A DNA stretch of 64,000 bases. It comes from Clostridia bacterium. Its GTDB lineage: Bacteria > Bacillota > Clostridia > Oscillospirales > CAG-272. A model generated the notes under the pieces. That model had not been told where the DNA came from, did not search any database, and saw nothing but the letters and a program-made list of their open reading frames with translations. The DNA is taken from positions 75,408 through 139,407 of the forward strand of contig JAFVWS010000035.1 of NCBI GenBank assembly GCA_017501545.1. The letters run 5' to 3'. How positions within the stretch are numbered: the stretch's first letter is position 1; every line of letters begins with the position of its first letter. Positions 15,970 through 30,899 of this stretch are shown piece by piece. Position numbers and translations under genes: made by a program.

Positions 15970-18111
15970 CTATTGTATGTAAGCCTCAGCGCCTGCTTCT
16001 CTTAATTCATTGAGAACGTAGTTTGCCTCCTCAAGAGTGTCAAGCTCTGCAATTACGCAAGGAGCTGCATCAATCATATCCTTTGCGGTTCTTAAATCAA
16101 CCTCAAACATTTCCTTTATTGAGTTCATAACCGCAAGCTGATTTAGTCCACCTGATTGTAAAACCACGCTATACTTGCCTTCCTCACTGTCACTATCCTC
16201 TACGCACGCTTCCTCCTCACCGTCAGAAACCGCCTCGTATGTGCCAGTGTTTTCGCCCTCGTTTTGCATAAAGTTGATTTTTTGATTAATTTGTGCAATT
16301 GCGCTTCTTGCTGTATCAATATTAGCCTGAACAGCCATAATATCGTTCTCAATTTCGTGTACAGCCTCGCTTTGCTTGCCAATATTGCCAGGTCTATATC
16401 TTACAAGTGTTTTGATTGCTTGAATATGCGAAACCAAGCCACCGGTAAGAAGCATATCCGCAGGAATTAATCCAGCACGCTTAATCATTGCAAGCAAAAC
16501 GATGCCAGAAATAGTACGCACAACAATCATTGTAACAACTGAGCCTACATGGCTTCCATCTCCGCCAGTGCTTACCAAGTTTATAAATCCACTAAGAAGG
16601 GTGAAAATATATGCAATGGTAATAATCAGGTGCACTCCTGCAACCACGTTTAGCTTAATTGCATTTTTCTTGTTAAACTGACCGTGTCGCGCCCTTTCAG
16701 CAGCCTCTTCAAGGTCTTTCTTTTGTTTCAAGAACTCGCCTATACGGTTAGATGCGTTTTGTCTTGCGTTATATAGCGCTTGAAGCTCGCTTTGTCTTTG
16801 TGCCTCAAGCTCTGCATTTTCTCTAATTTGACGTTCTCTTTCTCTGCGCTCAGCCTCAAGCTTTTCAAGAGTTTCCTTAATCTGCGTATTATAACCGATG
16901 ATTCTTGTTGCCGTCTCGTCGTCTAAGAAACGAATTGCATTTTTGTAGGCTGCATAGTTTTCAAAAACTGTTGTGCAGTAAACGAGGTCAGATTCCTTTG
17001 TGCATTTTAGCTGAGCAAGAAGCTTGCCAAGATAAGCGCGTCCGTTTTCAGGGTCATTATCAAGCACCTTTTCAGCATATTCATCAGCGCTTGACCAATC
17101 CTCTGACTCAAGGAAGAGATATACACGCTTTAGAAGCGCCTCAGTATTTGCAGCCGGTGCTTGAATAGCTGTTGGCGCAGCCTGTGCTTGTATAGGTGCC
17201 TGCACCCTTTGCTCATTCTTTTTGCCTATGATTTTCTTAATACCTCTAATGAGGTCAGGCATAAAGCCAAGCTTGCTCATATCCTGTGCCTGTAGGTGGG
17301 AAAATTCTTGTGGCAAATCGTAAGGGTCCATATCCTTATATGCAGGAATTAGCACCTTTCTCGCACCATTTTTAATAAGTGAAAGATATCTTGACCACTC
17401 ATTCTTCACCCAAACTGCATTAAAGAATTCAGGCTTTGTTCCAAGAACAACCATTACCTTTGCACTATTAAGTGCAGCGAAGATATATGGCTCATAAGCA
17501 ACACCAAGCTTATCCTCAAGAGTAATACGGGCAAAGAACACCTTAAAGCCCTCTCTCTTTAGCTCGTGATAAAGCTCTGTTGCATAAACCGAATCGTGGG
17601 TTCTTCTTCCGTTTTCGTCTGTTTCCTTATAGCAAATAAATACATCAAATGGCTCTTCCTTTTGAGAAATATCAAGGATTCCCTTTTGAATTTCATTTAT
17701 TGCCCTTGCCTCCTCCTCATAAATAAGCTTTTGAGAAATGTCGGCATATTTTATAGCTGACTTATAGTTGTCATCGTCGAAAATTGACGTATATTGAGCA
17801 CGGTTAACGGTAGGAATTCTCTTCTTTGTTAGAGGGTCCTCTACGTATTCAATGCCATATTTACAAAGGACGATTGACCAATAGCTTTCCGCATCCTCGA
17901 TGTTTTCATTAAGAATCTCCTCATAGATTCCCATTGCCTTATCAAATTCATTGTTTCGGCGAAAATGATTTGCGCGGTCGTAAAGCCTTTCAATCATATC
18001 ATCATTAAGCCTTGGAAGCGTTTGCTGACTGCCACAATAATCGCAGGTGATTGTTGTGCTATTTTCAACATTTAATGCGCCACCACACATTTTACACTTA
18101 AAAACTGCCAT
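15970..18111 (-). CDS. Zn-ribbon / TIR / TPR-like / coiled-coil / 2-TM / L7-L12-C-terminal-domain-like protein (713 aa)
   Basis: From N- to C-terminus I see: a Zn ribbon (CKMCGG...CDYCG); a TIR-like block (FDVFICYKETDENG...VFFARITLE...AKVMVVLGT...AVWVKNEWSRY); TPR-like helices; a charged coiled coil (EAERRERERQIRENAELEAQRQ); two hydrophobic helices (VVAGVHLIITIAYIFTLLSGFINLV and VGSVVTMIVVRTISGIVLLAMI); and a C-terminus (YSVVLQSGGLNQLAVMNSIKEMFEVDLRTAKDMIDAAPCVIAELDTLEEANYVLNELREAGAEAYIQ) that resembles the ribosomal L7/L12 CTD. Confidence 0.8.
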   Translation of the reverse strand: MAVFKCKMCGGALNVENSTTITCDYCGSQQTLPRLNDDMIERLYDRANHFRRNNEFDKAMGIYEEILNENIEDAESYWSIVLCKYGIEYVEDPLTKKRIPTVNRAQYTSIFDDDNYKSAIKYADISQKLIYEEEARAINEIQKGILDISQKEEPFDVFICYKETDENGRRTHDSVYATELYHELKREGFKVFFARITLEDKLGVAYEPYIFAALNSAKVMVVLGTKPEFFNAVWVKNEWSRYLSLIKNGARKVLIPAYKDMDPYDLPQEFSHLQAQDMSKLGFMPDLIRGIKKIIGKKNEQRVQAPIQAQAAPTAIQAPAANTEALLKRVYLFLESEDWSSADEYAEKVLDNDPENGRAYLGKLLAQLKCTKESDLVYCTTVFENYAAYKNAIRFLDDETATRIIGYNTQIKETLEKLEAERRERERQIRENAELEAQRQSELQALYNARQNASNRIGEFLKQKKDLEEAAERARHGQFNKKNAIKLNVVAGVHLIITIAYIFTLLSGFINLVSTGGDGSHVGSVVTMIVVRTISGIVLLAMIKRAGLIPADMLLTGGLVSHIQAIKTLVRYRPGNIGKQSEAVHEIENDIMAVQANIDTARSAIAQINQKINFMQNEGENTGTYEAVSDGEEEACVEDSDSEEGKYSVVLQSGGLNQLAVMNSIKEMFEVDLRTAKDMIDAAPCVIAELDTLEEANYVLNELREAGAEAYIQ

Positions 18112-18132: not shown

Positions 18133-18858
18133 TTACTTTAATATTTTGCATTTAGCATTTCTTTCGCTAATAAGAGCAGATAGCTCCTTGGAAAACACAG
18201 CTGCGTTTTCTGCGTTTTTCTCATCAACAGCTACTGAAAATTCAGCAAATTTTTCTGTGATTCTACCCTCGACTGATTCGAGTGCTGGGTCTGACATAGG
18301 GTCGCTGTATCTAATTTCCTCATATACATTTCTTGCCAAAAGAGAAAGCTCCTCGCCGTCCGCCCTTGCCTTTAGCGCCTCTGCCTCGCTGATAAGCCAT
18401 CTCATATAAGTTGTCTTTGCTTCAACCCTTGCTTCTACAGCCGCAGCGTGCTCACCGCTTACCTTTGCGCCAAGTATAGAAATAACACCTACAACTAAGG
18501 TAATAGCACAAGCGATTATTCCAATCCAAGAAGCAACATAGCCATATACAGCTATGCAAATACCACCAATAACCAAGGTGACAATTAGAGTTGTTATGCT
18601 TGTTGAAATCATTGGAAGATTTAAAAATCTCTTATCCTTGCTCTTTTCACTAAGTGCAATAAATGCAATGGCAAGCTGACCAATAAAGGAAATTGTAATT
18701 ACAATATAAGCCGCCCAGAAAATACCCGTGCCAAGCTTATCAACCTCAACACCATTTATTTCTCTATATCTTGGTGTTACAAACGCAATTAGATTGAAAA
18801 GGCCAAGGGACAACGCCCAGCCAATAATATAATAAATAAAGCTTTTAGCGAATTTCAT
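18133..18858 (-). CDS. 4-TM membrane protein with a helical cytoplasmic tail (241 aa)
   Basis: Four clear hydrophobic helices are followed by an Ala/Glu-rich helical C-terminal domain of about 100 aa. A good RBS (ggagg) is present. No family recognised. Confidence 0.65.
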   Translation of the reverse strand: MKFAKSFIYYIIGWALSLGLFNLIAFVTPRYREINGVEVDKLGTGIFWAAYIVITISFIGQLAIAFIALSEKSKDKRFLNLPMISTSITTLIVTLVIGGICIAVYGYVASWIGIIACAITLVVGVISILGAKVSGEHAAAVEARVEAKTTYMRWLISEAEALKARADGEELSLLARNVYEEIRYSDPMSDPALESVEGRITEKFAEFSVAVDEKNAENAAVFSKELSALISERNAKCKILK

Positions 18859-18873
18859 TTTTCATCCTCCTTA

Positions 18874-21561
18874 TTAAAGCTTTTCGCCACATTCTGGGCA
18901 GAATTTTGGATTGCCGTTAATCTCTGTGTCACACTTCGCACATTTGCGAGCAAGGGCTGCCCCACATTCGCCACAGAATTTACCCTTAGCTGTCTTTTGA
19001 CCGCATGATGGGCAAATAACCTCATTGTCGTTAAGGCTTTCTATTTTTGCGCCACATTCTAAGCAGAACTTAGAGGTTGAAGGCACGCTCGCATTACATT
19101 TTGGGCAGGTTGTAGCAGGTGCAACTGGCTCTTGTGGCTGGAAGCCCTTAAACATATCGCCCATTTGTGGAGCAATGTGTCCTGCTGCTGCAAGACCAAC
19201 ACCAAGTCCAACCATATCACCAGCAACTGAGCCACCACCTGTGATTGTCATATTGCCAATGCCCTTTGCATATTCCTTTTGAACCTCAGCCTGAATAATG
19301 TCTCTTTGGTTGTAGCCTTGTGCCTGCATAATTTCAGCCTGTGCGAAGCCGTCCATCTTTTTAGCCTGAGCCTCTGCCTGAGCCTTAATAAGGTCTCTTT
19401 CAGCCTGACGCTTTGCAATTTCTGTTGCTGTTAGCTCGCCCTCAAGGATTGTTTCTCTGTCTGCCTTTATTTTAGCTGTTCTTACAGCTGCCTCTGCCTC
19501 TGCAACCTTTGTTTGCAGAGAGATTGTATGAAGCTCACGAAGCTTTTTGAAGTTAGGGTCGTTTTCCGGAAGATTGATTGTTGTTATGTAGAACTGTGGA
19601 ATTGTAAGACCATATTCCTCAAGTGCCGGTGTAATGTTTCTTCTTAATACCTCGGAAAGAAGCTCAAGGTTTTCGTCAACATCCAAAAGATCAATATTTT
19701 GAGATTTTATCGTTGCTGCAAGATGTGTCTTTACAGCAGTTGTGATAAGTGGACGGAAGCAATTTTGAAGCGACTTTGTAAAGAACGCACCACGCTCCTC
19801 CCATGCAATACCATTCGTTGTACCAACAAGCTTAATAAGAAGCTTACGAGCGTTGGAAACTGCTAAATTAAGCTCACCAGATGCGCCAATTTCAAGAGGA
19901 ATACCAAGCGTTGGCTCAACAAAGCGCACAAGCTCAGGTGTGCCCCATTTAATGCCCATTTGAACAGTCTTATTAATAAAGTAAACCTCACAGTGGAAGG
20001 GTGATTCTCCACCTGCCACTCTCTTCATTGATTTTCCAACAAGTGGAAGGTTTTGTGTTTCAAGAGTATGACGACCTGGGCCAAACAAATCAAGCGCTTG
20101 ACCATTAAGGAAGAATACTGCCTCCTGTGATTCGTGAACTATAAGCTGTGTATAATTGTTGAAATCCTCGCGTGGGTGCTTCCAAATAAAGGTATTGTTA
20201 TCACCCTCATATTTAATTACGTCTACCACATTGTTAGCCATAATAATTGTCCTTTCCCCTGCTACTGCCGGTTTTGTTGAATTTACAAAAGAATCATCGT
20301 CCCTTGACGAATTAGCGCCTCCAAAATTTGGCGGTGGCACAACCCAATTTGCTGATGCAATCTTTGAATCTGCCACTGGCGCAGAAGGCTTTGGTGCTTC
20401 AATAGGTGGAGCCTTAGGCGCGCCTGATGAAAAGTCATTTTTTGGTGAAGGTGCTTGTGTCTTAGCTGGTGCTGAAATTGTATCAAATAAATGACGGTCC
20501 TCCTCTGAAGGAAGCGTTTCATTCATAGATGAAGGCGCACCAACTGCTATCGTTTCCTCTGCAGCCTTGCCTTGTGACACCGCTTTGCCTTCAGTCCTGC
20601 TTGAATTGATTGGGGTGCCCTCCATTACAACATCATCAAGGGCTTTTTCTCCCATTTCCTTTTCACATTCTAAGAGCGCATCATAAAATTCCTTTGCAGA
20701 ATCGTATCTTTGTGCGCGTGGACTGATTGCCTTGACTATTACCTCTCCAAGCTTATTTTTCGCCATCACAGGCGCGCTTGGCATCTTGCCTGTCATTCTC
20801 GTTTCAAATGCAATATCCTCGTCCTCTGTTGAATATGGCTCTGGAAATTCTGGCAGGAATGGATTTCTTGATTTATTTAATAGCTTATATAAAACTATTC
20901 CAAGTGAATATAAATCCACTGTATTATCGTACTTTTCTTTTCCAAGGTATACCTCAGGTGCTATGAAGTTTGGTGTGCCCTTGACGGACTCAGCACGTGA
21001 CTTGTCCTTTAGCATTTTGGATACACCAAAGTCCCCAAGCTTATATTCACCCTTGGAGGAAACAAATATATTGTCGTCCTTAATATCTCTGTGAATGATG
21101 CTCTTTTCGTGACAGGAAATTAAGGCTGTCAATATATCCTTACCTAATTTTATTACGTCCCTTACAAGTATAGGCTTGCTTTCTATATAGTCTGTAAATG
21201 GTGTTAAAAACTCCATCATTATGTAAATGTCGTATGTTTTTGGAGATGGCGTCTCGATAATATCATTTTCATAATATCTAACTATGTTTTTAGTGCCACT
21301 CTCTGATAACGTGCTTAAAATTTGTATTTCACTAACTATATCATTAAGCACGCTTGCAAAATAATCGTCTGCCTTCGCATAGTCGCCGCCCATTGAGTTA
21401 AGCACGCTTGCATACTGCTTTTTTGTAGGCAATGTAATATGCTTTAGTGCCCTTACGTATGTTCCTGCGGCGTTTGTTTTTGATACCTTATAAACCGTTC
21501 CGAATCCGCCGGAGCCGATTTTTTCATCAACATGATAGCCTAATATTTCTTTACCGATCAT
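18874..21561 (-). CDS. Hanks-type Ser/Thr kinase fused to an SPFH/Band-7 (YdjI-like) domain and three C-terminal zinc ribbons
   Basis: Kinase motifs are intact (GSGGFGTVYKV, RALK, HRDIKDDN, DFG, APE). A P/A-rich linker follows, then an SPFH-like region (VIKYEGDNNTFIWKHPREDF...FHCEVYFINKT...), a coiled coil, and three CxxC...CxxC ribbons. ATG 21561 is preceded by ggag. The ORF-track start at 21564 is a TTG one codon upstream. Confidence 0.85.
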   Translation of the reverse strand: MIGKEILGYHVDEKIGSGGFGTVYKVSKTNAAGTYVRALKHITLPTKKQYASVLNSMGGDYAKADDYFASVLNDIVSEIQILSTLSESGTKNIVRYYENDIIETPSPKTYDIYIMMEFLTPFTDYIESKPILVRDVIKLGKDILTALISCHEKSIIHRDIKDDNIFVSSKGEYKLGDFGVSKMLKDKSRAESVKGTPNFIAPEVYLGKEKYDNTVDLYSLGIVLYKLLNKSRNPFLPEFPEPYSTEDEDIAFETRMTGKMPSAPVMAKNKLGEVIVKAISPRAQRYDSAKEFYDALLECEKEMGEKALDDVVMEGTPINSSRTEGKAVSQGKAAEETIAVGAPSSMNETLPSEEDRHLFDTISAPAKTQAPSPKNDFSSGAPKAPPIEAPKPSAPVADSKIASANWVVPPPNFGGANSSRDDDSFVNSTKPAVAGERTIIMANNVVDVIKYEGDNNTFIWKHPREDFNNYTQLIVHESQEAVFFLNGQALDLFGPGRHTLETQNLPLVGKSMKRVAGGESPFHCEVYFINKTVQMGIKWGTPELVRFVEPTLGIPLEIGASGELNLAVSNARKLLIKLVGTTNGIAWEERGAFFTKSLQNCFRPLITTAVKTHLAATIKSQNIDLLDVDENLELLSEVLRRNITPALEEYGLTIPQFYITTINLPENDPNFKKLRELHTISLQTKVAEAEAAVRTAKIKADRETILEGELTATEIAKRQAERDLIKAQAEAQAKKMDGFAQAEIMQAQGYNQRDIIQAEVQKEYAKGIGNMTITGGGSVAGDMVGLGVGLAAAGHIAPQMGDMFKGFQPQEPVAPATTCPKCNASVPSTSKFCLECGAKIESLNDNEVICPSCGQKTAKGKFCGECGAALARKCAKCDTEINGNPKFCPECGEKL

Positions 21562-21574
21562 CAACTTGCTCCTT

Positions 21575-22393
21575 TCAGAATTCTATCAATATAAGCGTAA
21601 TGTTATCACCATAGCCGGCATTGCGCCCAAGTGCACGCTCTATAAGAATTTTTCCAATTTGTTTAATGTCTTGATTTGTTTTAAATATCTCTGTCATTTC
21701 CTCATCGCTTAATACATCCGTCAAGCCGTCGGTGCATAACAGTAATTTTGTTGTATAGGCGCTTTTTTCAATTTTAAATGCGTCCGCAACCAATTCCCCA
21801 TTATATCCAATATATCTATATAGGTTTTTTCTTCTTGGGAATTTTTCGCACTCCTCCTTGGACAGAAGCCCTAAGCCTAAGAGCCTTTGTCCCTCTGTAT
21901 GGTCAACGGATAGCTGCTCCAGCTCCTCTCCTCTATAAGAATAAAGCCTGCTATCACCTACGTTAAAGCCATAAAGCTCACCGTTTTTGCGGACGAAGCC
22001 ACAAAGCGTTGCGCCCATTCCGTGAAGCTCCTCGCGCTCTCTTGCGCTTTCTACAACATAACGATTTAGCTTTGATATTTCGCCCTTCAAGGCTTCCTTA
22101 GTAATAGATGCAGGGTCAAAAATTCTTCTGCTATTTTCAGCCAAGTAGCCAACGCTCATCGCGCTTGCCACCTCGCCCGAGGCATGCCCCCCCATTCCAT
22201 CGGAGACGGCAATTATAAGATTATCCTCAAGATTACATTCGTATGCCAATTCATACGTCTGCCTGCTTTGAGAAATATAAAGCACCTCTTCCCTTGAAAG
22301 AATTCGTCCGTTGGCAATTAGCGCATTATCTTCTTGATTTTCGCGACTGTTTCCAACGCTTGAGGCAAAATATACAGAAGTTTTATCGGTCAT
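21575..22393 (-). CDS. PP2C-family Ser/Thr phosphatase (272 aa)
   Basis: Typical PPM motifs are present (EDNAL, SDGMGGHASGEVAS, CTDGLTD, DNITLILIEF). Its ATG shares one nucleotide with the stop codon of the upstream radical-SAM gene. Confidence 0.85.
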   Translation of the reverse strand: MTDKTSVYFASSVGNSRENQEDNALIANGRILSREEVLYISQSRQTYELAYECNLEDNLIIAVSDGMGGHASGEVASAMSVGYLAENSRRIFDPASITKEALKGEISKLNRYVVESAREREELHGMGATLCGFVRKNGELYGFNVGDSRLYSYRGEELEQLSVDHTEGQRLLGLGLLSKEECEKFPRRKNLYRYIGYNGELVADAFKIEKSAYTTKLLLCTDGLTDVLSDEEMTEIFKTNQDIKQIGKILIERALGRNAGYGDNITLILIEF

Positions 22394-23232
22394 TACCTAC
22401 ACCCCATTTTCCATTCGTGTTCGTTTTCCTTCATTTCTTCAATAGTACGATATCGCCATTTTTGTAATTTGGAGCACGGAGATATTGTTCCGTCTACATT
22501 TATAAATATCGCGCTTTCGCCAATGTCTAAACACCTAAATTCACTATTTGTAGTATACTCCCAATATTCTTTAAAGCATTTTTCTATTCGATACAAACTT
22601 GGATTTTTCGCTATTATATTTTGAATGCGTTGAATTGTATGAGTTGAAATGGTTGGACTGTATATTCCACTAAAAGATTTCACGGGGCGAAGTATGTCTA
22701 TTTTTTTCACGCCAATATTTACAAGATATTGAGACAATTTTTCAAAATTGTCAATATTTTGATCAGACAATACGACATTGGCACAGCATAATACACCCAC
22801 ATCGCAGGCATCTTTAATTGCCGCCATGCCAATATCATATGTATCACGAGTTAACGAGTTTATACTTTTGTCTATATCATTCATCGATATGCACAAAACA
22901 TCCAAACCGTTTTTTTTAAGTTCTGAGTATTTCTCTCTTGAATGATTGTATCCAGATGTTGCAAGAAAAACGAACCTTCTATTGCCCTTGCATTCTTTTA
23001 TCAACAAAGATAAATCCTCATGCATAAGCGGTTCTCCACCGGTTATTTGAACCACCTCAACATCTTTTGTCTGTGGTAAATTTAAAATTTCTTTTACTAC
23101 ATCCAATGATATATACCTGTCCCCTTTTTCGGTGTAGCAGTAGTTGCAATTATAGGGACAAGAATTGGTACATTGAATAACACAAGCCTGCAACCGCAAG
23201 ATTTTATTCCTTTTCCTTTTCTTGTTGGTCAA
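22393..23232 (-). CDS. Small radical-SAM enzyme with a short C-terminal Cys-containing (twitch/SPASM-like) tail
   Basis: It carries a CPYNCNYCY (CxxxCxxC) motif near the N-terminus, a GGEPLM motif, and a C-terminal FINVDGTISPCSKL. The start is uncertain. Position 23232 is a TTG that overlaps DUF4176 by 29 nt. In-frame TTGs at 23199 and 23193 lie just after the DUF4176 stop, with aaggaa upstream. No ATG precedes the Cys motif. Confidence 0.75.
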   Translation of the reverse strand: MTNKKRKRNKILRLQACVIQCTNSCPYNCNYCYTEKGDRYISLDVVKEILNLPQTKDVEVVQITGGEPLMHEDLSLLIKECKGNRRFVFLATSGYNHSREKYSELKKNGLDVLCISMNDIDKSINSLTRDTYDIGMAAIKDACDVGVLCCANVVLSDQNIDNFEKLSQYLVNIGVKKIDILRPVKSFSGIYSPTISTHTIQRIQNIIAKNPSLYRIEKCFKEYWEYTTNSEFRCLDIGESAIFINVDGTISPCSKLQKWRYRTIEEMKENEHEWKMGCR

Positions 23233-23485
23233 GACGAATTAATTTTTGCAAGAACTCCATTCCTTCTGCATCTTGAAGTCCAACAAAGAACAATTTGTCT
23301 ATTTGATCAAAGTTAAACAGGTATAGCTTTTCAGGATTTATTATTCCTTCAGGATACAAGCATCCGCTAAAATCCCACATTTTACCATTATCAATCTGTT
23401 TTTGTCTTAATCCAACCACCATAACTCGTTTGTTACTATTTTTCAAAAGCACAACGGAGCCGATTGGAAGATATTTGTTTTCCAT
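23204..23485 (-). CDS. DUF4176-family small protein (T7SSb accessory type, 93 aa)
   Basis: YLPIGSVVLLKNSNKRVMVVGLRQ...W(D)FSGCLYPEG matches my recollection of the DUF4176 signature. The gene lies directly downstream of a putative T7 substrate. Confidence 0.65.
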   Translation of the reverse strand: MENKYLPIGSVVLLKNSNKRVMVVGLRQKQIDNGKMWDFSGCLYPEGIINPEKLYLFNFDQIDKLFFVGLQDAEGMEFLQKLIRLDQQEKEKE

Positions 23486-23570
23486 GACTAATTTAAACCT
23501 TTCTTTCTCACATTATCCAAAAATCTTTTGTAAAGTGTATTTTATGTATTTTGATTGTCAAAAAAGATAC

Positions 23571-24728
23571 TTACCAAGAGGTTATGGCATTCCAAAAGCT
23601 CTTTGCTCCATCCGCAATCGTTTCGCCAACATCACTGAAAAAATCGCCTACTGCATTAACAGCGTCGTTAACAAAATCACCTACTGCTTCAACAGTGTCG
23701 CTAACAAAATCACCTACTGCTTCAACAGCGTCGCTAACGGTTTCTTTAAAATTTTCCCATCCTGCATCATTAAATCCAATTTCAATGCCAAGAGAAAATC
23801 CCAATATTGCTGCGACTCCGCCTTCCATTTTGAATTTTCCGTTTTCAAATCCAATCTCGCCCTCTGCTCCAATAGCTCCTGCATATCCACCGGCGCTGAT
23901 TTTTATATCCAATCCAAAAATGCTGAATGTCGCCTCTGCTTTTCCTTGAGCCGCGGCGACCATCGCCTTGCCTTCGGCTTTTGCTATAACTTTACCGTCA
24001 TCATCAATTTTCATGCCAATCTCGCCTTTTGCTTCAGCTACTCCAATGCCTCCTTCGCCACTTATGCCAAATCCCGCCATATCGTCACCGATATTTAAGG
24101 ATCCTTCAGCTCCTAGAACTTGGACTGAAGCTCCAACCTCGGCGCCAATAGATATAAATTCCATGGTTTCTTTTTCTTCCCATGTACCATCTTTCTTTTT
24201 TTCGCGCGTCTTTGTAGCTTTTCCAAAAGCAAACGAAGTGTCAAAGCTAGCCTCTGCTTTTCCTACGTAGGCATCTACTTCTGCGTTTCCCCAACCCCAA
24301 TCAGCACCGGCATAAGCATTGACTAAGTATGCACTTGCACTATTATCTGTAACCTTTGTTCCAAGTCCGTTAACATATGCGGAGCCCCATTTATCAGGTT
24401 TTTCAAGATCAGTCAAGCCTAAATCAATTTTAGCCGGCAAATATATATCAGGAGAATTCATTCCCAAAGGATCGTCTAAGCTTGCATAAACTATTGCAAC
24501 TTGAGATAGAAGCGCTCCCATTTGATTCAATGTAGTGGCCTCTTTTTTTAATTCCTCTGGAATCGAAAATATTTTTTCCTTTGCGCCAGAATGATATAAA
24601 ATATCCGTTTCTGCCGAGTTGATCGTTTCTACATAGGTATTATACACTCTTACCAATTCTTGTGTATATGAATTAATTGTGGAAGAATAGTCATTGATTT
24701 TGTTTACATTAACTTTAATATAAGGCAA
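23571..24728 (-). CDS. Putative T7SS substrate/toxin with an N-terminal helical (LXG/WXG-like) region and a Gly/Ala-rich repetitive C-terminal domain
   Basis: The gene follows the WXG genes. It has a TTG start with ggagg 7 nt upstream. The N-terminal 90 aa or so look helical. The rest is rich in GxxxG/A strings (GAEVGASVQVLGAEGSLNIGDDMAGFGISGEGGIGVAEAKGEIG...). The C-terminus carries a 3x 11-aa repeat, D(A/T)VEAVGDFV(S/N). There is no signal peptide. I could not point to a literal LxG motif. Confidence 0.45.
   Translation of the reverse strand: MPYIKVNVNKINDYSSTINSYTQELVRVYNTYVETINSAETDILYHSGAKEKIFSIPEELKKEATTLNQMGALLSQVAIVYASLDDPLGMNSPDIYLPAKIDLGLTDLEKPDKWGSAYVNGLGTKVTDNSASAYLVNAYAGADWGWGNAEVDAYVGKAEASFDTSFAFGKATKTREKKKDGTWEEKETMEFISIGAEVGASVQVLGAEGSLNIGDDMAGFGISGEGGIGVAEAKGEIGMKIDDDGKVIAKAEGKAMVAAAQGKAEATFSIFGLDIKISAGGYAGAIGAEGEIGFENGKFKMEGGVAAILGFSLGIEIGFNDAGWENFKETVSDAVEAVGDFVSDTVEAVGDFVNDAVNAVGDFFSDVGETIADGAKSFWNAITSW
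23640..23738. repeat. 3 x 33-bp in-frame tandem repeat inside 23571..24728
   Basis: The unit aaaatc(g/a)cctactgc(a/t)t(t/c)aacag(c/t)gtcg(t/c)taac occupies 23640-23672, 23673-23705 and 23706-23738. Confidence 0.9.
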
Positions 24729-24754
24729 ACTATTTCCTCCTATGTATTATCAAT

Positions 24755-25054
24755 TCAACTTTGTTGTGCTTGTGCGCCTTGTACGTTTGCATTTTCAGTA
24801 GCATCGTACGTGTCTGCTGCTTTCTCGAGAAATGTTGCATAGCTTATAATTGTCGTATAAATATCATCAAAATTATCAGCCAAGCCTTGGAACTTTGCAA
24901 CTGTTGTTTCTGCTGATTCGCCTTGCCAGGTTGATCTTAAGCTTTCGATTTCAGCAGTCATTTCGCCTGTGAATGTTTTAATAGAGTTAGCAACTGTCTT
25001 AAATGAGTTTGCCTTGTCTCTCATTGATGTAGAATTAACCTTAATTGTAGCCAT
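24755..25054 (-). CDS. WXG100-family protein (99 aa)
   Basis: The size fits, a central WQGES motif is present, and the helical composition and Q-rich C-terminus fit the family. The gene lies in the T7SS operon. Confidence 0.75.
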   Translation of the reverse strand: MATIKVNSTSMRDKANSFKTVANSIKTFTGEMTAEIESLRSTWQGESAETTVAKFQGLADNFDDIYTTIISYATFLEKAADTYDATENANVQGAQAQQS

Positions 25055-25068
25055 TTTAAAATTCCTCC

Positions 25069-25380
25069 TTAGATTCCTGTATGAAGATTGCTTGCGGCAC
25101 CTTTAATTGCCTCTTCTGTTTTAACGTAATTTTCCGCAGCTGCCCTAAGATACTTTACATATTGCAAAAGCACTGCCGACATTGTTTCAAAGTCGTTTCT
25201 GTAAGCCTCAAGCTTTGCATTAAACGTGTCACTTGCAATACCTTGCCATTGCGCAGATTTCAAGTTTTGAATTTCTGTGTAAAGCTTTGCCCACTCAGCG
25301 TTGTAGCGTGCGGTTTTCTCCTCGATTACGTTTGCAGAAGAAACCAATCTTTCTGTTGTTACTGCCCATTCGTTTGCCAT
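25069..25380 (-). CDS. WXG100-family protein (103 aa)
   Basis: A central WQGIAS motif (W-x-G) is present, with the expected helical hairpin size. It is adjacent to the other WXG gene. Confidence 0.7.
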   Translation of the reverse strand: MANEWAVTTERLVSSANVIEEKTARYNAEWAKLYTEIQNLKSAQWQGIASDTFNAKLEAYRNDFETMSAVLLQYVKYLRAAAENYVKTEEAIKGAASNLHTGI

Positions 25381-25438
25381 AGTTGTTATTTCCTTTCTTT
25401 TTACAGCTGTTGCTGATTTTTATTAATTATTTTCGCTA

Positions 25439-25681
25439 TCATCTAAGATTTTTAGCAGCACGTTCCATAGCGTTTGATACATCTGACATGCTTTGCTTCG
25501 TTTTTTGTATATCCGAAATAATCTTTGATAAACGGTTTTGAAACTCTTCGGATGCGGGACCTCTCCATTCATTTTTCATTTTATCTCGCAAAATCTCCAG
25601 CGAGAGAATTTTGCAGTCCAAATCCGACTCCAAATTATGGATTTGTTCGACTTGGCTAATAGCCTTTGAATAATCAGCCAT
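25439..25681 (-). CDS. Small WXG-like helical protein (80 aa)
   Basis: It has a WRGPASEEF motif and lies between the esaB-like gene and the WXG genes. It is shorter than typical EsxA. Confidence 0.5.
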   Translation of the reverse strand: MADYSKAISQVEQIHNLESDLDCKILSLEILRDKMKNEWRGPASEEFQNRLSKIISDIQKTKQSMSDVSNAMERAAKNLR

Positions 25682-25694
25682 GATGATACCCCCG

Positions 25695-25952
25695 TTATAT
25701 TAGCAATAGTTTTTCGCCGTGAGTGATGCCTAACTGCTTGAAATTACAGCCTGAATTAAGCACCTTGCCTGTTGACGCCTGCATAAGCGCGCCAGCTTGA
25801 AGCTTACTACGCTTAATTCCAGGATATTCCTCGCTGATTGCGTTTTGAATTAGCACAGTAGCATCTAACACACTCATTTCAAACGGAATAAGAAAATTAT
25901 GCTCGACGTTTAAGGAGAGAACCTTTATATTTACCGATAATTTATCTACCAT
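25695..25952 (-). CDS. YukD/EsaB-like ubiquitin-fold T7SS protein (85 aa)
   Basis: The size fits, and it lies 10 nt downstream of essC. The sequence pattern looks like a beta-grasp (LSVNIKVLSLNVEHNFLIP...GEKLLLI). Confidence 0.6.
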   Translation of the reverse strand: MVDKLSVNIKVLSLNVEHNFLIPFEMSVLDATVLIQNAISEEYPGIKRSKLQAGALMQASTGKVLNSGCNFKQLGITHGEKLLLI

Positions 25953-25962
25953 TTTATCCTCC

Positions 25963-28900
25963 TTATATCTTAACGTAAGCTATTTCGTCCTTCGAATAAA
26001 CGATAGCCTCACCATCATCTAATTTAATCTCGCGCGATTTTGTTGGCACACTGTATATGTCTGTCGTTATCGCCTGGGCAACGGAGTTATTAATCTCGCC
26101 ACCGATAATTACACCACATTGTGCGCGAACAAGCATTGAGTAAAGTCCGGCGCTTTGATATTCACCCCAGCGTTGCATATCATCAAGCGTAACTATATGA
26201 AGCCTTGGGCTTCTTGATACTATCTTCTCAAATTTGTTAAGCGCCTCATCAGAAATTCTATCAAAGAAATCACAAAATCCGTCTATAACTATAATTATAT
26301 CCGTTAGGTCGCTTTCCTCCTTTGCCCACAAATCATCAACAAAAGCATCAATGTCGTCGACAAATTCAAGTTGAGAAAGCTCCTCGTCACGATTAGAGGA
26401 TATTATGTATGCTTTTTTACCCTGCCTTACGATACTTGCCTTGAGCTTTTTCGCAAGCCCGCTGCTTGCACGTGTGCCGATGAAGATTCTTTTAGCGCTC
26501 GAATAATTAAATCCAACCTCTTCGCCACTTGCCTTATCAACGCCAACAAGCATATCACCCTCGTCAGATGGCGCATATTTGTATCTTTTACATTCGATTT
26601 TTTGAGCTGTAGGAATCAATGATGAAATATCCTTAATGGGTGCGTTTTTCTCGGTGCTTGATTTTATTTTTCTTTTGCTTGAATAGCTGTTGCCCTTAGA
26701 GACCTTAGCCATTTCAGCATATATCTCATTTATTTTTGAAGCACGAAGTGATTCGTTTGAGGCATTAAACGGAACAGCAAACTGCACCTCCGTCGCCTTA
26801 CCGCCCTTAACCACTAAGCCTCTGCCCTTAGCCTGCTCCGGCATAATTGGAACAGACACGTTAAGAATATCTCTGTACGCGCCAGAATCATTCATATTAA
26901 GGACTATTCTTTCTGAAATATGCTCAGTTACCCTATAGTAAATTGCACCCTTGCTATTACCTGTAACAATGAAATAAATACCACAGGCGCGCGCAGCGGA
27001 CACTAACTGAACAAGCGTATCCTCTACCCTGTGCGTTTTTTCACGGAATGCTGCATAGTCGTCAAGTGCAAAAATTATCATTGGCATTTTTTCATCAGTA
27101 AGTCTTATATATGACTCGTAGTTTGCACAATGGCTCTTTGTAAATATCTCTCTTCTTTCTGCAATTATTCCGTTTAGAATATCAAGCATTTCGTTTAATC
27201 CTGCATCATCGCTATCGGAAACATACCTTGAGCAATGAGGCATTGAAGCGAGGCTTGCAAGTCCTCCACCACCAAAGTCAGCCACAAATAGATTTAGCAT
27301 CTCTGGCGAAAGCTTAAGCGCCAAGGAGAACAGAATTGTTTGAATAAGTGTACTTTTTCCAGTACCTGAAGCGCCATATATTGCCAAATGTCCGTTTTCC
27401 AAGAAATCAACACTATATTGCTCCTGCTTTTGCTTTTCCGGCAAATCAACCATACCACAAATAGCCTGCATTTGTGTATCTGTATCCCACTCGTCAATAT
27501 TAAGAGCAAGTGCGCTGTTAAGGCACCTTTCAAGGAGTAAGGATGTGGAAAGAGGTGGAAGCCATAGCTTTTTCGCCCTGAGCTTCTGCTGCTCACCAAT
27601 GCTTGCAAGAAGCGACACTGTCTCCTCAAGCTGTGTACGCTCACTCTTTTTGTCAGCAACGGATTTTTTAGAGGTTCTTATTCTTTCCGCGTGCCAGTTT
27701 ACCATGTCAACTGAAACGCTGTCCTCATCTATATATTCCTTTTGCTCTATATAGTCAGCACCACTATATCCAGATTGAATCTGCTCAAAGATTTCGTCGT
27801 AGCCAACCTGAACAAACGCACGACCTGGTTGCTTAATGAGTGCAGCCTCTGGCTTGCCAAGCATATCCATACTATCCTGCTTGTCAAGAACCTTTAGGCA
27901 AACCTTAAACTTTGAGTTGCTCCAAATTTGTGGGTCAACAACACCACTTGGTCTTTGCGTCGCCAAAATAAGATGTATTCCAAGGCTTCTACCAACCTGT
28001 GCTATGTCTATAAGCTTGGACATAAACTCGGGATGCTGGGATTTTAGCTGAGCAAACTCGTCGATTACAATAATCAAGTGAGGAAGTGGTTGATCCAGCT
28101 TTTTGTCCTTGAAATATTTATGGTATGAGTTGATATCAATCTTATCAACTCCTAATATCTCTGCAGATTTATTGAAAAGGCTTTGTCTGCTCTTCACCTC
28201 TGCCTCTAAGGAAATGAGCGCCCTGTGTAGCGTATTTCCAGAAAGGTTTGAAATGGTTGCCGCAAGGTGAGGTGAGCGCAAGAATGGTCTTGCCATATCG
28301 CCACCCTTAAAGTCAACCAGAACAAAGGCAACCTCATTAGGGCTATAGTTTATCATCATTGATAAAATATAAGCCTGTAAGAATTCACTCTTACCTGAGC
28401 CTGTTGTTCCCGCCACTAAGCCGTGACAGCCGTGATACTTTTCGTGAATATCAAGCGAGAATATCTCGCCACCTGCCTTAACGCCAATAGGTGCAGCAAG
28501 GCTCCTTTCCGATACGTTTGTGCCCCAATGGTTTGTAATCTCCAAGGCACCAACGTTTCCAACCCTGAACATATCAAGGAAGGTTACTCTGTCTGGAATT
28601 GCCTCTGTGGTTTTATCAATTTTCACAGGAATTTGATTTATTTCGCTGCAAAGCTGTTTCATTAATGAATCAGAAACAGAGTCGGATTTATATTTTATAA
28701 AGCGGTTGTTGTTTTCATTTTTAACATACATACCGCAAACCTCTGCGTCCTTTTGAATTATAGCAACGCATTCCTTTGGAATATTACTAAATCTCTTTCC
28801 AAAGAACACAGTAGAAATACCAGAGGTGTTGTCCTTGTCAATTAAACGCTTTCTAAACGGCAAATCCTCAATTAAATTATCATCCAGCACCAAAACAACA

Positions 28901-30501
28901 TATCTTGGTAGCATATCCTCATTGCCCTCTTGGCTTGTCTCGCGGTCTGAAACAACCTCATCAAGATGTGCAAGAAGCGCCCTTGCCTCTTGTGGAGTGG
29001 TTGCCACGTATCGACGCTTTCTATCATTGCTCCATGTATGTGGTAAATCGTTAGCCCACTTAAGTGAAGACAAGTCTGAGGAATTATAAATCAATGCGAT
29101 TTTAACCTCATCTGGTGAGTGAAGCGCAACTATATTTGAAACAATAACCTTGAAAACCTCCTTGGTGTCGCCAACAACGCCAATTACCCTTTTGTCAGCC
29201 AAGGAAATAGCAATTGGAACATCGGTTAATGTTTCGTATCTGTTTTTTAGGTCAAGCGCCTGCTCAACCATTGGGTCATCCTCAAGGGTGAATGCCTTTT
29301 CTGGTGCTTGGATGTTCAATGGCGTGTCAATTTCACCAACACCTAAGCGTACAAGCAAAAAGTCCTCGTCTGTTGGCACCCTTTCCCAAAGGCGCCTGTT
29401 TCTGTCAAATATAAATTTCGACGTGTCAGCAGGAGATGGCATTGCGCTTTCCTTCAAAACGCGTGCATTCCTTTCATGCTTTTCCTTTATTTCGCCTTCC
29501 TTTTCAGCCAAATAAAGCTCATATCTTTTTATTCTATACTCCTCGTTTAGCCTTTCCTGCTTTTTGTTATATCTTCTCAAAAGCACTGGCCAAAGAAGCG
29601 CACCTGCAAGCATGCTGACAGCCATTACACTGCTTGTTATAACTGATGCAATGCCATTGCCCTTAACAGCATTTGCTATCGTAATACCAACGCTGGCAAG
29701 CATAGCAAGTGACATTGTAATAGAAGGGCCTGCCGTCAACAAAAACGGTGGTTGCTTTGATTTTTGAGGTGGTGTTGGGGCATCAATTACTATTTTGTCC
29801 TTGTCAACGGACTTGATAATTCTTGGCGTCCTTACATAATCACTTTCCTCCTCGTCCTTTTCAGGAGATGCGATTTCATACTCTTGAAGCAAGCTAAGCG
29901 CATTTGTCCTAATGTTTGATGGCAAAACTAATGCTCCGTCAAAGTAAACCATTGTTGTTCCCATTAAGTAAATCTCATCGCCATTCTCAAGCTTTCTTGA
30001 TGACTCTCTTTTTCCATTAACATAAATTGGCGTCTTTGTAGACAAGTCCTCAAGCACATAAGCGTCATTTTCCTTGTGAATAGCGGCGCATTTACGAGAA
30101 ACATTTGCATTGATGTCTATTATTATATTCGACTCCTCTGAGCGTCCAATAAATACATTTTCTTCACCAAGCATATATATATTCGATGACATAGAAAGCG
30201 TGCTACAATCAACGAAAAGAGCTGAATACACAACTCCATCGTTATCAAAGGTTAAATAGTCACCGTGTGAGATTTGCAAGGAGCCCTCTGCCTCTTGTCC
30301 TGCACTATAAATTTTTACAGCTGAGGATTTGCTTTGCAAGGTGTAATATTCCGCCTGAATATGAATAGGCAAATATATTTTCTTGTTTCCAAAAACAAAG
30401 CTCTTATCAACATAACCATTGAACGAATTTTGAATAAGCTCATCAATTTTATATTGACACATTTTATTATTTACAAAAATCGTTACTATAAAATTGTTCA
30501 T
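25963..30501 (-). CDS. essC: EssC/YukB-type FtsK-SpoIIIE T7SS ATPase with N-terminal FHA-like modules (1512 aa)
   Basis: The N-terminus is FHA-like (IGRSEESNIIID...VSRKCAAI...STKTPIYVNG...GDEIYLMG). Two TM helices follow. Walker A motifs GTTGSGKSEF and GASGTGKSTL are present, with Walker B IVIDEFAQL and a degenerate third ATPase domain. Confidence 0.9.
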   Translation of the reverse strand: MNNFIVTIFVNNKMCQYKIDELIQNSFNGYVDKSFVFGNKKIYLPIHIQAEYYTLQSKSSAVKIYSAGQEAEGSLQISHGDYLTFDNDGVVYSALFVDCSTLSMSSNIYMLGEENVFIGRSEESNIIIDINANVSRKCAAIHKENDAYVLEDLSTKTPIYVNGKRESSRKLENGDEIYLMGTTMVYFDGALVLPSNIRTNALSLLQEYEIASPEKDEEESDYVRTPRIIKSVDKDKIVIDAPTPPQKSKQPPFLLTAGPSITMSLAMLASVGITIANAVKGNGIASVITSSVMAVSMLAGALLWPVLLRRYNKKQERLNEEYRIKRYELYLAEKEGEIKEKHERNARVLKESAMPSPADTSKFIFDRNRRLWERVPTDEDFLLVRLGVGEIDTPLNIQAPEKAFTLEDDPMVEQALDLKNRYETLTDVPIAISLADKRVIGVVGDTKEVFKVIVSNIVALHSPDEVKIALIYNSSDLSSLKWANDLPHTWSNDRKRRYVATTPQEARALLAHLDEVVSDRETSQEGNEDMLPRYVVLVLDDNLIEDLPFRKRLIDKDNTSGISTVFFGKRFSNIPKECVAIIQKDAEVCGMYVKNENNNRFIKYKSDSVSDSLMKQLCSEINQIPVKIDKTTEAIPDRVTFLDMFRVGNVGALEITNHWGTNVSERSLAAPIGVKAGGEIFSLDIHEKYHGCHGLVAGTTGSGKSEFLQAYILSMMINYSPNEVAFVLVDFKGGDMARPFLRSPHLAATISNLSGNTLHRALISLEAEVKSRQSLFNKSAEILGVDKIDINSYHKYFKDKKLDQPLPHLIIVIDEFAQLKSQHPEFMSKLIDIAQVGRSLGIHLILATQRPSGVVDPQIWSNSKFKVCLKVLDKQDSMDMLGKPEAALIKQPGRAFVQVGYDEIFEQIQSGYSGADYIEQKEYIDEDSVSVDMVNWHAERIRTSKKSVADKKSERTQLEETVSLLASIGEQQKLRAKKLWLPPLSTSLLLERCLNSALALNIDEWDTDTQMQAICGMVDLPEKQKQEQYSVDFLENGHLAIYGASGTGKSTLIQTILFSLALKLSPEMLNLFVADFGGGGLASLASMPHCSRYVSDSDDAGLNEMLDILNGIIAERREIFTKSHCANYESYIRLTDEKMPMIIFALDDYAAFREKTHRVEDTLVQLVSAARACGIYFIVTGNSKGAIYYRVTEHISERIVLNMNDSGAYRDILNVSVPIMPEQAKGRGLVVKGGKATEVQFAVPFNASNESLRASKINEIYAEMAKVSKGNSYSSKRKIKSSTEKNAPIKDISSLIPTAQKIECKRYKYAPSDEGDMLVGVDKASGEEVGFNYSSAKRIFIGTRASSGLAKKLKASIVRQGKKAYIISSNRDEELSQLEFVDDIDAFVDDLWAKEESDLTDIIIVIDGFCDFFDRISDEALNKFEKIVSRSPRLHIVTLDDMQRWGEYQSAGLYSMLVRAQCGVIIGGEINNSVAQAITTDIYSVPTKSREIKLDDGEAIVYSKDEIAYVKI

Positions 30502-30590: not shown

Positions 30591-30619
30591 ATTATAACAT
30601 ATTATTCATAATTTGTCAA
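30591..30619 (-). promoter_or_regulatory. Consensus sigma-A-type promoter of the essC operon
   Basis: On the minus strand it reads TTGACA (30619-30614), a 17-nt spacer, then TATAAT (30596-30591). The roughly 85-nt leader contains an 8-bp stem ttcgcggg/cccgcgaa (30541-30578). Confidence 0.7.
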
Positions 30620-30656: not shown

Positions 30657-30688
30657 ATAAAAGCGCGTGAGTTTTCACGCGCTTTTTT
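30657..30688. terminator. Palindromic terminator downstream of 30690..30899
   Basis: The hairpin aaaagcgcgtga-gttt-tcacgcgctttttt separates the RHH-like gene from the essC promoter. Confidence 0.6.
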
Positions 30689-30689: not shown

Positions 30690-30899
30690 TTATTCTTCGT
30701 CTGAAAATTCATCAAGCGATATGCCTTGTAGCTCCTCGCTTTTAATATTGCCCTTTACTCTTTCGTAATACGAGATTTTTTGGCGTATCATAGCGGTAAT
30801 TTCGTTTTGCACGCTCATTTTCTCGTTTTTTGAAACAACGGCAAGCTTTTTTGCTACGTCCTCGCTTAAGCGAATTTTTAATATCTTGTTCTTTTTCAT
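30690..30899 (-). CDS. Small ribbon-helix-helix-like protein (69 aa)
   Basis: The N-terminus KILKIRLSEDVAKKLAVVSKNEKMSVQNEITAMIRQ fits a beta-strand plus two-helix CopG/Arc pattern, and the tail is acidic. The assignment is tentative. Confidence 0.4.
   Translation of the reverse strand: MKKNKILKIRLSEDVAKKLAVVSKNEKMSVQNEITAMIRQKISYYERVKGNIKSEELQGISLDEFSDEE

Follow-up and report, generated by a model that had tools for sequence, protein, structure and literature searches.

We analysed a stretch of 64,000 nucleotides, hereafter the window, from a gut Clostridia bacterium of the Oscillospirales lineage CAG-272 (assembly GCA_017501545.1, contig JAFVWS010000035.1, positions 75,408 to 139,407). It carries a gene cluster for type VII secretion (system abbreviated as T7SS) headed by essC. 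The list of open reading frames (ORFs), combined with Pfam and NCBIfam matches, delimits a co-directional block of thirteen ORFs on the minus strand, running from 30.5 kb to 16.0 kb, with PFOR as the next gene beyond it; all window genes whose coordinates are given below lie on this strand. The part that extends from essC to a kinase gene spans about 10.4 kb (from about 30.68 to 20.24 kb), and is placed between comM and the small gene p69 on one side and a cassette of SPFH, 4TM and TIR genes on the other. We show below that this cluster is a member of a conserved T7SS family, not a stripped-down version of the firmicute system T7SSb, and that it was probably acquired horizontally.

EssC (TsxC; 25963..30501, 1512 aa) has tandem FHA domains, two transmembrane (TM) helices (residues 261-309) and FtsK-type ATPase domains. 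It matches the Pfam families FHA (7e-11) and FtsK_SpoIIIE (1e-54, two modules), scores 973 bits with the NCBIfam model TIGR03928, for which the cut-off is 778, and has B. subtilis YukB as its best PDB sequence match (9qks, 1e-116). In an AlphaFold2 (AF2) model, residues 1-205 are predicted to form two successive FHA-type beta-sandwiches. The top PDB folds for this N-terminal part were 9qks_H (the B. subtilis T7b core unit), 5fwh (the FHA part of EssC) and 1wv3 (S. aureus), and the next were the phosphothreonine-binding FHA domains of GarA, OdhI and Rv1747. The phosphate-contact residues are kept in the alignment of 94 EssC homologues (G119-R120 in at least 93, S135-R136 in 91), and the Arg/Ser pair aligns to the FHA domain of GarA. 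Walker A and B motifs are intact in D1 (GTTGSGKS, position 698) and D2 (GASGTGKS, position 1043); D3 (approximately residues 1280-1512) is degenerate, and a recognisable Walker A motif was not found in it.

Immediately 3' of essC, as in every related locus examined, lies the gene for TsxB (25695..25952, 85 aa), which was assigned to the ubiquitin-like EsaB/YukD type from its AF2 fold and its position. The model (pLDDT 86.2) has a beta-grasp fold, for which Foldseek retrieved ubiquitin, SUMO and NEDD8 at probability 1.0 (TM-score 0.66-0.77). No significant match was obtained with PF08817 or other Pfam and NCBIfam hidden Markov models (HMMs), and the top PDB profile matches, which were to YukD, were not significant (E = 0.22); the orthologue of locus L018 matches PF08817 weakly. 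The C-terminal end is KLLLI, without Gly-Gly. At the two levels of fold and gene position, the protein is thus confirmed as EsaB-like. Three WXG100 genes come next. The first protein (25439..25681, 80 aa; PF06013, 1.3e-6) has a WRG motif, and is shorter than its orthologues (100-128 aa), to which it is 36-47% identical. The second (25069..25380, 103 aa; PF06013, 2.5e-10) and the third (24755..25054, 99 aa; PF06013, 1.2e-13) both have a WQG motif and a C-terminal YxxxE signal, YVKTE and YDATE, respectively. The 103-aa protein (WXG103) is highly conserved, with 67-85% identity across loci, and the 99-aa protein (WXG99, 52-86%) is probably its heterodimer partner.

The following gene (23571..24728) encodes a polymorphic-toxin-like substrate of 385 aa, for which no match was found in Pfam, in NCBIfam or by PDB sequence search. 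Its helical N-terminus of about 85 residues is conserved: only residues 1-85 align with the proteins of 366-446 aa encoded at the same position in L015, L016, L018 and L037. The C-terminus is variable, Gly/Ala-rich and glycine-zipper-like, with D(A/T)VEAVGDFV(S/N) repeats. A protein that shares just its first 85 residues in this way has the typical pattern of polymorphic toxins, in which the targeting domain is conserved. At the slot after the toxin gene, relatives encode a soluble protein of 239 aa or a polytopic one of 274 aa. The DUF4176 protein (23204..23485; PF13780, 3e-27), whose gene follows the toxin/immunity genes in all loci, is likely to act as a chaperone or stabiliser of the toxin, by analogy with the role given to such proteins in a paper on S. 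suis (PMC12482557). Further on are a PP2C/PPM Ser/Thr phosphatase (TsxF-like; 21575..22393; PF13672, 1.4e-14), which is 44-56% identical in all complete loci, and a Hanks Ser/Thr kinase domain with a Pro/Ala-rich linker (TsxD-like; 20242..21564; Pkinase, 1e-40). The Gly loop, Lys, HRD, DFG and APE motifs of the kinase are all intact. Its kinase part (residues 1 to about 390) is 62-79% identical to family kinases of 611-724 aa, which are always paired with a PP2C.

T7SSb machines, such as Ess of S. aureus and Yuk/Yue of B. subtilis, consist of EssC/YukB, EsaB/YukD, EsxA/YukE, EssB/YukC, EsaA/YueB and EssA/YueC, and the tandem FHA domains of their EssC normally dock on the EssB pseudokinase. The last three of these components were looked for in the assembly of the source genome (1.86 Mb, 49 contigs, 93.9% complete), and the Bacillus subtilis control scored above cut-off in each profile search. 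For EssB/YukC, neither PF10140 nor TIGR03926 gave a match in the source genome. For the N-terminus of EsaA, TIGR03929 reached 12.6 bits there, compared to a cut-off of 122 bits, and for EssA, a short and poorly conserved family, PF10661 yielded just fragments of 15-17 bits with stop codons. No ORF of the cluster has the size of EsaA or the pseudokinase-plus-TM architecture of EssB. Ten further carrier genomes (G074-G083, reached via loci L038-L047) were searched with PF10140, TIGR03929 and PF10661, and none of the ten had a match above cut-off. This indicates that the absence is a property of the family and not an assembly gap. A sequence-only reading of this DNA had described a T7SSb core reduced to EssC, an EsaB-like protein and WXG proteins, in which EsaA, EssA and EssB were not recognised. 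The Pfam and NCBIfam matches and the fold of TsxB confirm this core, and the null profile searches extend the missing components to the whole genome. The same reading had left room for the missing parts being encoded elsewhere; nothing above cut-off was found elsewhere in the source genome or in any of the ten carriers.

EssC homologues retrieved from metagenomes and metagenome-assembled genomes (MAGs) form 94 clusters, with 44-63% identity, and their hosts belong to Oscillospiraceae, Lachnospiraceae, Ca. Scatosoma and Enterococcus cecorum; one of them, at 50% identity, is annotated as EssC of E. cecorum. We compared the neighbourhoods of seven homologues (L015, L016 and L017 from E. cecorum, L018, L037, L054 and L056), together with twelve further loci in named MAGs of Clostridia, Oscillospiraceae, Eubacteriales, Ca. 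Scatosoma and Lachnospiraceae. A recurring gene order was observed, given here with optional genes in parentheses: (helix-turn-helix (HTH) protein of about 125 aa), SPFH/double-zinc-ribbon protein of 378-396 aa, EssC, 85-aa protein, three WXG100 proteins, 366-446-aa protein, (variable protein of 239-274 aa), DUF4176, (radical SAM), PP2C, kinase of 611-724 aa, Zn-ribbon/TPR protein of 197 aa, (protein of about 210 aa). The SPFH/zinc-ribbon gene upstream of essC and the Zn-ribbon/TPR gene downstream are found in most family loci. L037 is a natural locus of the family that has neither, and L037, L054 and L056 are T7SS clusters without a TIR gene. Among 36 sampled congeners, an orthologous EssC was found in one (G029), with the T7SS-type SPFH gene in its usual upstream place. 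The family is a widespread sub-type, apparently undescribed so far, and is conserved without EssB and with a kinase and a PP2C; this supports the earlier proposal of a structurally divergent T7SS.

The window also encodes a small radical-SAM enzyme (22393..23232; PF04055, 4e-20), with a CxxxCxxC motif and a short SPASM/twitch-like tail; to find such a gene within a T7SS operon is unusual. Between DUF4176 and PP2C, a radical-SAM gene is present in L015/L040 (L015 18112-18906), L037 (11565-12377), L038 (12759-13559), L041 (4164-4961), L042 (13148-13942) and L056 (2159-2968), and absent in L016, L018, L039, L046, L047 and L054. It is an accessory of one sub-branch of the T7SS family. No precursor peptide or substrate for the enzyme was evident.

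Two further observations concern the distribution of such clusters. In E. cecorum (GCA_022807045.1 and GCA_022807175.1), the whole cluster adjoins a DDE_Tnp_1 transposase gene (noted at L016 203-2053 and L017 6322-8172), and its SPFH gene is 82-89% identical to the SPFH genes of Lachnospiraceae loci. The transposase neighbour and this level of identity suggest a recent transfer from Clostridia to Lactobacillales. Another T7SS layout was encountered in L019 (Logan ERR13612550), where EssC is 39% identical to the window EssC. A 761-aa kinase gene lies directly upstream of essC in this locus, along with WXG genes and DUF4176, and the flanks contain CsgG-, LPP20- and LpoB-like lipoprotein genes and genes for one CHAP and one CAP-domain protein. 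Near the L019 cluster, neither a PP2C nor an SPFH gene was found.

How does the family compare with known systems? With T7SSb it shares the tandem-FHA, two-TM, FtsK-type EssC, the ubiquitin-fold protein directly after essC, WXG100 substrates, and a polymorphic toxin with a helical N-terminal targeting region and a putative DUF4176 helper. It differs from T7SSb by the absence of EssB, EsaA and EssA from the source genome and ten carriers; by its three WXG100 genes, including a conserved non-identical pair, where T7SSb has one esxA; by an active kinase and a PP2C in the operon; and by the Arg/Ser pair for phosphate binding that its FHA2 domain retains. Systems without EssB, EsaA and EssA have been published as T7SSc to T7SSj (Garrett, Higginson & Palmer 2024, Microlife, PMC11217815), so that the central idea of the sequence-only reading has a precedent. 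These systems keep the ATPase, WXG100 and, except for T7SSd, the ubiquitin-like protein. Kinases, PPM phosphatases and FHA-domain proteins are often encoded with them. Regulation by phosphorylation was proposed by the authors, who also reported that the membrane kinase TscD of T7SSc has the topology of EssB (PMC11217815).

Like T7SSe, T7SSf and T7SSj, the window cluster has an FHA-bearing TsxC, TsxB and TsxA, with the PPM phosphatase TsxF and, as in types e and j, the kinase TsxD in the cluster, and its EssC is 35% identical to that of the T7SSe-type locus L020. However, TsxJ of T7SSe, j and f (DUF6382-FHA, PF19909) is absent from the source genome and six of the ten carriers, and is encoded on off-cluster contigs in the other four. 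The giant Ig-like TsxI of T7SSd, e and j, which is plain in L020, is absent from the window cluster and 12 related loci, and the examined family loci have no TsxH/K, no AAA+/TadZ-like ATPase TsfV of the T7SSf kind and no vWA protein TscE. In T7SSc, which has TscE and an EspG-like TscG, TscC has no FHA domain, whereas EssC here has two in tandem, and no match to vWA (TscE) was found among the cluster proteins. Conversely, the accessible text of PMC11217815 does not mention the YdjI-like SPFH/double-zinc-ribbon protein, the Zn-ribbon/TPR protein, the fixed DUF4176, the optional radical-SAM enzyme or the 4TM-type kinase domain. As described, none of T7SSc to T7SSj matches the gene set of the family, which is set apart on gene content. 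In the literature, as far as it was accessible, we found no paper in which a T7SS cluster is connected with SPFH proteins or with E. cecorum; the present arrangement may already be listed in the supplements of PMC11217815.

Some analogies may be drawn with known regulators. A Hanks kinase of the membrane, together with a PP2C and with an FHA domain borne by a machine component, all within one cluster, recalls the on/off switch by threonine phosphorylation (PpkA/PppA/Fha1) of the type VI secretion system (T6SS), of which the TssL-Fha case of A. tumefaciens is cited in PMC11217815; the machine is another one, the FHA is here part of the ATPase itself, and the likeness is one of analogy only. The flotillin FloA contributes to T7SS assembly in S. 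aureus, which provides a precedent for an SPFH scaffold. In E. faecalis, the membrane Ser/Thr kinase IreK senses envelope damage and activates T7SSb (cited in PMC11217815). IreK and FloA are encoded elsewhere and act on canonical T7SSb, whereas the kinase, phosphatase and SPFH proteins are here members of the operon.

The kinase of the window has a singular end. Family kinases in relatives have C-terminal membrane domains of two types: type A kinases (648-666 aa) have four TM helices and a tail, and type B kinases (about 620 aa) have two TM helices and a helical tail. The window kinase ends before this domain, and reads in frame into the gene of a YdjI-like SPFH protein with double zinc ribbons (18874..20241; Band_7_1, PF13421, 2.5e-37, and DZR), for which no TM helix was predicted. 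The result is an ORF of 896 aa (Pkinase + Band_7_1 + DZR). Residues 444-896 of the fusion align with residues 2-498 of the standalone SPFH protein P0124 at 60% identity. More generally, the SPFH/zinc-ribbon part is 55-70% identical to standalone proteins of about 455-500 aa (66-70% for same-genus standalone genes), compared to just 29-35% for the T7SS-linked SPFH genes. The native SPFH start codon (M442, ATG at nt 20241-20239) and the sequence AGGGGAAAGG, resembling a ribosome-binding site, are kept inside the fusion ORF. From these sequence features, we read the 896-aa protein as an insertion-generated fusion between a truncated T7SS kinase and a resident SPFH gene. Among the 120 best matches to it in 5.8 billion clustered proteins, both domains occurred together only in one that is 99% identical and comes from L022, an independent metagenome scaffold in ENA with the same gene order at 98-100% identity; the fusion is thus present in two independent assemblies, the source genome and L022. 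The HTH, T7SS-type SPFH and Zn-ribbon/TPR genes and the kinase membrane domain are absent from the window locus and from the rest of the genome.

The two genes that follow the SPFH gene complete the resident cassette. The second cassette gene encodes a protein of 241 aa with four predicted TM helices and a cytoplasmic helical tail (4TM; 18133..18858), from a family of 1711 homologues. An HMM of this family matched the type A kinases P0137, P0188, P0154, P0143, P0174 and P0145 over its full length (1e-85 to 1e-95), and type B kinases weakly (1e-8 to 1e-4). The next gene thus specifies a paralogue of the domain that the window kinase has lost, and the loss could be complemented in trans. By analogy with YdjI of B. 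subtilis (see below), fusion to SPFH could hold the shortened kinase at the membrane, with the 4TM protein as its attachment. The third gene encodes a Zn-ribbon/TPR/TIR protein of 713 aa with two TM helices and an L12-C-like tail (15970..18111; TIR_2, 4.6e-11; Ribosomal_L12, 7e-10). Its N-terminal 287 residues are 81% identical in G004 and G019, where no T7SS is nearby. A blastp match (5e-4) had hinted at a similarity between the 197-aa Zn-ribbon/TPR protein of the family and the N-terminus of the TIR protein; this homology was rejected, an HMM of nine orthologues having given 4-11 bits on generic TPR repeats. PADLOC reported generic kinase, viperin-like radical-SAM and weak TIR matches, and no named defence system for the cassette.

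The cassette recalls the membrane-stress module PspA-YdjGHI (SamGHI; PMC8581546; PMC13713150). In B. subtilis, YdjI, an SPFH protein of the Band_7_1 type, is soluble and has a zinc finger at its C-terminus; two membrane proteins, YdjH and the Zn-ribbon-led YdjG, recruit it to the membrane (PMC8581546). Both sets combine an SPFH-DZR protein, a polytopic membrane protein and a Zn-ribbon-led protein, with homology shown for the SPFH domain family (PF13421), and the 4TM and Zn-ribbon-led membrane genes are adjacent to, and co-conserved with, the cassette SPFH. Unlike in the YdjGHI case, there is no pspA in the window cluster, and the cassette ends in TIR or, in relatives, is wired to kinase/PP2C or to a T7SS. 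Separately, in L042 (16649-20306) and L044 (17355-20309), a protein of 437-446 aa with no family match and a Zn-ribbon/TPR/TIR protein are encoded after the kinase or Zn-ribbon/TPR genes. These TIR proteins are 53-57% identical to that of the window over the N-terminal 287 residues, and in L042 a further SPFH gene comes after the TIR gene. TIR cassettes thus recur beside the T7SS family.

The possible history of the locus was approached by comparison within the genus. In G001, G072 and G013 the order is comM-p69-PFOR-BcrAD. In G010, the closest relative (comM 85% identical), it is comM-p69-SPFH-DZR-4TM, after which the contig ends, and there is no T7SS. The window has comM-p72-p69-[essC...PP2C-kinase]::SPFH-DZR-4TM-TIR-PFOR-BcrAD. 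On the left, DNA homology to G010 can be followed as far as about 30682, and on the right it starts again at 20224; the right junction could be placed no closer than codons 395-441 or so of the fusion, the intergenic DNA being too diverged. This series argues for about 10.4 kb of T7SS DNA between p69 and the point where the resident SPFH gene starts. A cassette with no T7SS beside it is also present in L021 and in two congeners, G004 and G019, and 4TM follows SPFH-DZR in G004, G019, G010 and L021. G004 and G019 were considered as 'empty sites' and rejected, their cassettes being in unrelated genomic contexts. Since the cassette was at the site before the T7SS, and is present elsewhere without one, the 4TM and TIR proteins are not ancestral parts of the T7SS.

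A locus without any secretion gene adds to this picture. L055 (7882-13955; GCA_054291365.1) encodes an SPFH-DZR protein of 414 aa, a PP2C of 265 aa, a kinase-4TM protein of 666 aa and a TPR/TIR protein of 631 aa; no essC or WXG gene was found there. These parts are 42-79% identical to the window proteins (kinase 77%, PP2C 52%, TIR 79% over the N-terminal 296 residues). The kinase and PP2C thus also belong to an SPFH/4TM/TIR module, and between SPFH and PP2C, where L055 has nothing, the T7SS loci hold the secretion genes. The four-gene set of L055 may itself be a candidate module for defence or stress.

Transcription signals at the locus are consistent with a single unit. The essC promoter (30591..30619, read from 30619 to 30591 on the minus strand) is a sigma-70-type consensus, TTGACA-17-TATAAT with an extended TG, with 12 of 12 matches. 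It is found just downstream of the bidirectional terminator hairpin of p69 (30659-30686). The p69 gene itself (30690..30899, 69 aa) adjoins comM and is part of the flanking chromosome. As the sequence-only reading had accurately described, what precedes essC is its promoter, a terminator, a 69-aa gene and comM. In G001, G013, G072 and G010, all four without a T7SS, p69 follows comM at 69-76% identity, and it is therefore no part of the secretion system. Inside the block from essC to TIR, no strong terminator-like site was found, weaker matches being present, and the next convincing terminator is beyond it, at 15804-15781. The cassette lacks here the promoter that the G010 copy has, and is probably now co-transcribed with the T7SS genes. 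The region between comM and p69 (30957-31175; also L053 3484-3620) holds p72, which is a short ORF, and a second copy of the 3' end of comM. Partial copies of p72 and the comM end are also found in G001, which has no T7SS, and the repeat is thus unrelated to the insertion. Pfam and NCBIfam searches at relaxed thresholds with the 85-, 385-, 241-, 69- and 72-aa proteins returned nothing usable.

Taken together, the locus is probably best explained as a horizontally acquired T7SS variant, other than T7SSb, that inserted beside a resident cassette and became fused to it. Under this explanation, a hexamer of EssC would be both the motor and the only dedicated transmembrane channel component, and the ubiquitin-like protein and the WXG103/WXG99 pair would act as they do in other T7SSs. 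The toxin would be targeted by its helical N-terminal domain, with the help of DUF4176. A membrane kinase would take the place of the EssB pseudokinase on the FHA domains of EssC, and threonine phosphorylation by this kinase, read by FHA2, would control assembly or firing; PP2C would reset the switch, as in the T6SS with PpkA/PppA/Fha. At this site, the cluster would have inserted between comM-p69 and the cassette, with its own SPFH and Zn-ribbon/TPR genes left behind or later lost, and its kinase cut in the linker so as to read in frame into the resident SPFH. Through the insertion and the fusion, the 4TM and TIR genes, which are those of the cassette, would now form the downstream part of the T7SS transcription unit.

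Several points weigh against parts of this explanation. The pocket of FHA2 departs in part from the canonical one: the His position is H, C or T in the family and Cys here, and the canonical Asn position is Thr. The source genome is 94% complete and the carriers are all MAGs, so that the case for the absence of EssB, EsaA and EssA is made by repetition and not by one closed genome. That the T7SS was inserted here, and not lost in G010, is favoured by parsimony, and secretion by members of the family is predicted from their genes. No immunity gene is adjacent to the toxin-like gene. The kinase without an anchor, and the missing SPFH, HTH and Zn-ribbon/TPR genes, imply that the system may be impaired in this genome.

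This last point leads to an alternative that we consider unlikely, namely that the cluster is in this strain a crippled remnant, non-functional or unregulated and decaying, and the kinase::SPFH fusion a functionless accident. The fusion was indeed seen only in this species among the 120 best database matches, the membrane domain missing here is present in the kinase of every other locus, and no second copy of the missing family genes was found in the genome. In addition, a single one of the 36 sampled congeners has an EssC of the family, WXG protein 1 is short, and an immunity gene is lacking. On the other hand, none of the 10 T7SS ORFs is disrupted, and their identity to orthologues is strong; the independent metagenome has the arrangement at 98-100% identity; a natural locus, L037, dispenses with both the T7SS-linked SPFH and the Zn-ribbon/TPR genes; the perfect promoter is retained; and a 4TM homologue of the lost membrane domain is encoded immediately downstream. 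The T7SS of this strain may have full activity, may be mis-regulated, or may be inactive, the last being a minor possibility. It is exceedingly improbable, in our opinion, that the locus is an ordinary T7SSb whose esaA, essA and essB are in the unassembled 6% or so of the genome or are too diverged to be recognised. A MAG of 49 contigs and 93.9% completeness leaves some space for this, EssC does pass the T7SSb-type model TIGR03928, and proteins as small as EssA, with a single TM helix, easily escape detection. However, none of the three was above cut-off in the source genome or in ten independent carriers from several families. In T7SSb, moreover, these genes are in the essC operon, and the operon order is here conserved without them in more than 12 loci, with no cluster ORF of EsaA-like size or EssB-like architecture.

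The sequence-only reading had also suggested that the kinase, the 4TM protein and the TIR protein substitute for the missing components. For the kinase, the idea stands in part: it is a conserved partner of the family, with EssB-like topology in relatives, but the 896-aa protein itself would be a product of the insertion. For the 4TM and TIR proteins it does not hold as stated, these being encoded by a resident cassette found at the same comM-p69 site in G010, which has no T7SS. We therefore regard as quite improbable the explanation in which the kinase-SPFH, 4TM and two-TM TIR proteins are structural membrane subunits replacing EsaA, EssA and EssB. In its favour, they belong to a single co-directional unit behind the essC promoter, without a strong internal terminator; homology links the 4TM protein to the fused membrane domain of family kinases; family T7SS loci have an SPFH-DZR paralogue of their own; and Zn-ribbon/TPR/TIR proteins are encoded just downstream of the cluster in L042 and L044. 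Yet the cassette predates the T7SS at this site, as seen in G010, is T7SS-less in G004, G019 and L021, and occurs in L055 with kinase and PP2C but without essC or WXG genes. A TIR gene is missing from the T7SS clusters of L037, L054 and L056, and L037 also does without an SPFH gene. A large extracellular domain of the EsaA kind is seen in none of the proposed subunits, and the likeness between the Zn-ribbon/TPR protein and the N-terminus of the TIR protein is merely generic.

A broader reading may be possible, although we hold it to be rather doubtful: SPFH-DZR, 4TM, Hanks kinase and PP2C would form one membrane-integrity sensing module with an interchangeable output. Four arrangements were observed, namely SPFH/4TM/TIR (G010, G004, G019 and L021), SPFH/PP2C/kinase-4TM/TIR (L055), SPFH/[essC...DUF4176]/PP2C/kinase-TM/Zn-ribbon-TPR (most T7SS loci) and [T7SS]/PP2C/kinase::SPFH/4TM/TIR (the window). 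The two independent fusions, kinase-4TM in relatives and kinase-SPFH here, argue for one three-protein complex. If this were true, the T7SS family would be the secretory effector arm of a defence-like sensor of envelope damage, the toxin being fired once the sensor phosphorylates a target read by the FHA domains of EssC, and in this genome one sensor may drive both the TIR effector and the T7SS.

The preferred explanation, a T7SS variant acquired horizontally and fused to a resident cassette, has consequences of its own. For annotation, loci of this kind should not be labelled 'incomplete T7SSb', and the downstream 4TM and TIR genes should not be taken for secretion components. To our knowledge, the only structural models of T7SSs are based on EssB/EsaA/EssA, for T7SSb, or on EccB/EccD/EccE, for T7SSa, and the way in which type VII machines span the envelope of firmicutes is still an open question, on which this family represents a natural experiment as to how small a translocon can be. 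The family also bears on whether the contact between EssB and FHA descended from a phospho-dependent switch or was replaced by one. It is common in gut Clostridia, and a culturable carrier, Enterococcus cecorum, makes the question testable. Finally, that the kinase/PP2C/SPFH/4TM set is re-used, with TIR in some loci and with a T7SS in others, hints that the sensing of envelope damage, defence and antagonism between bacteria are connected.

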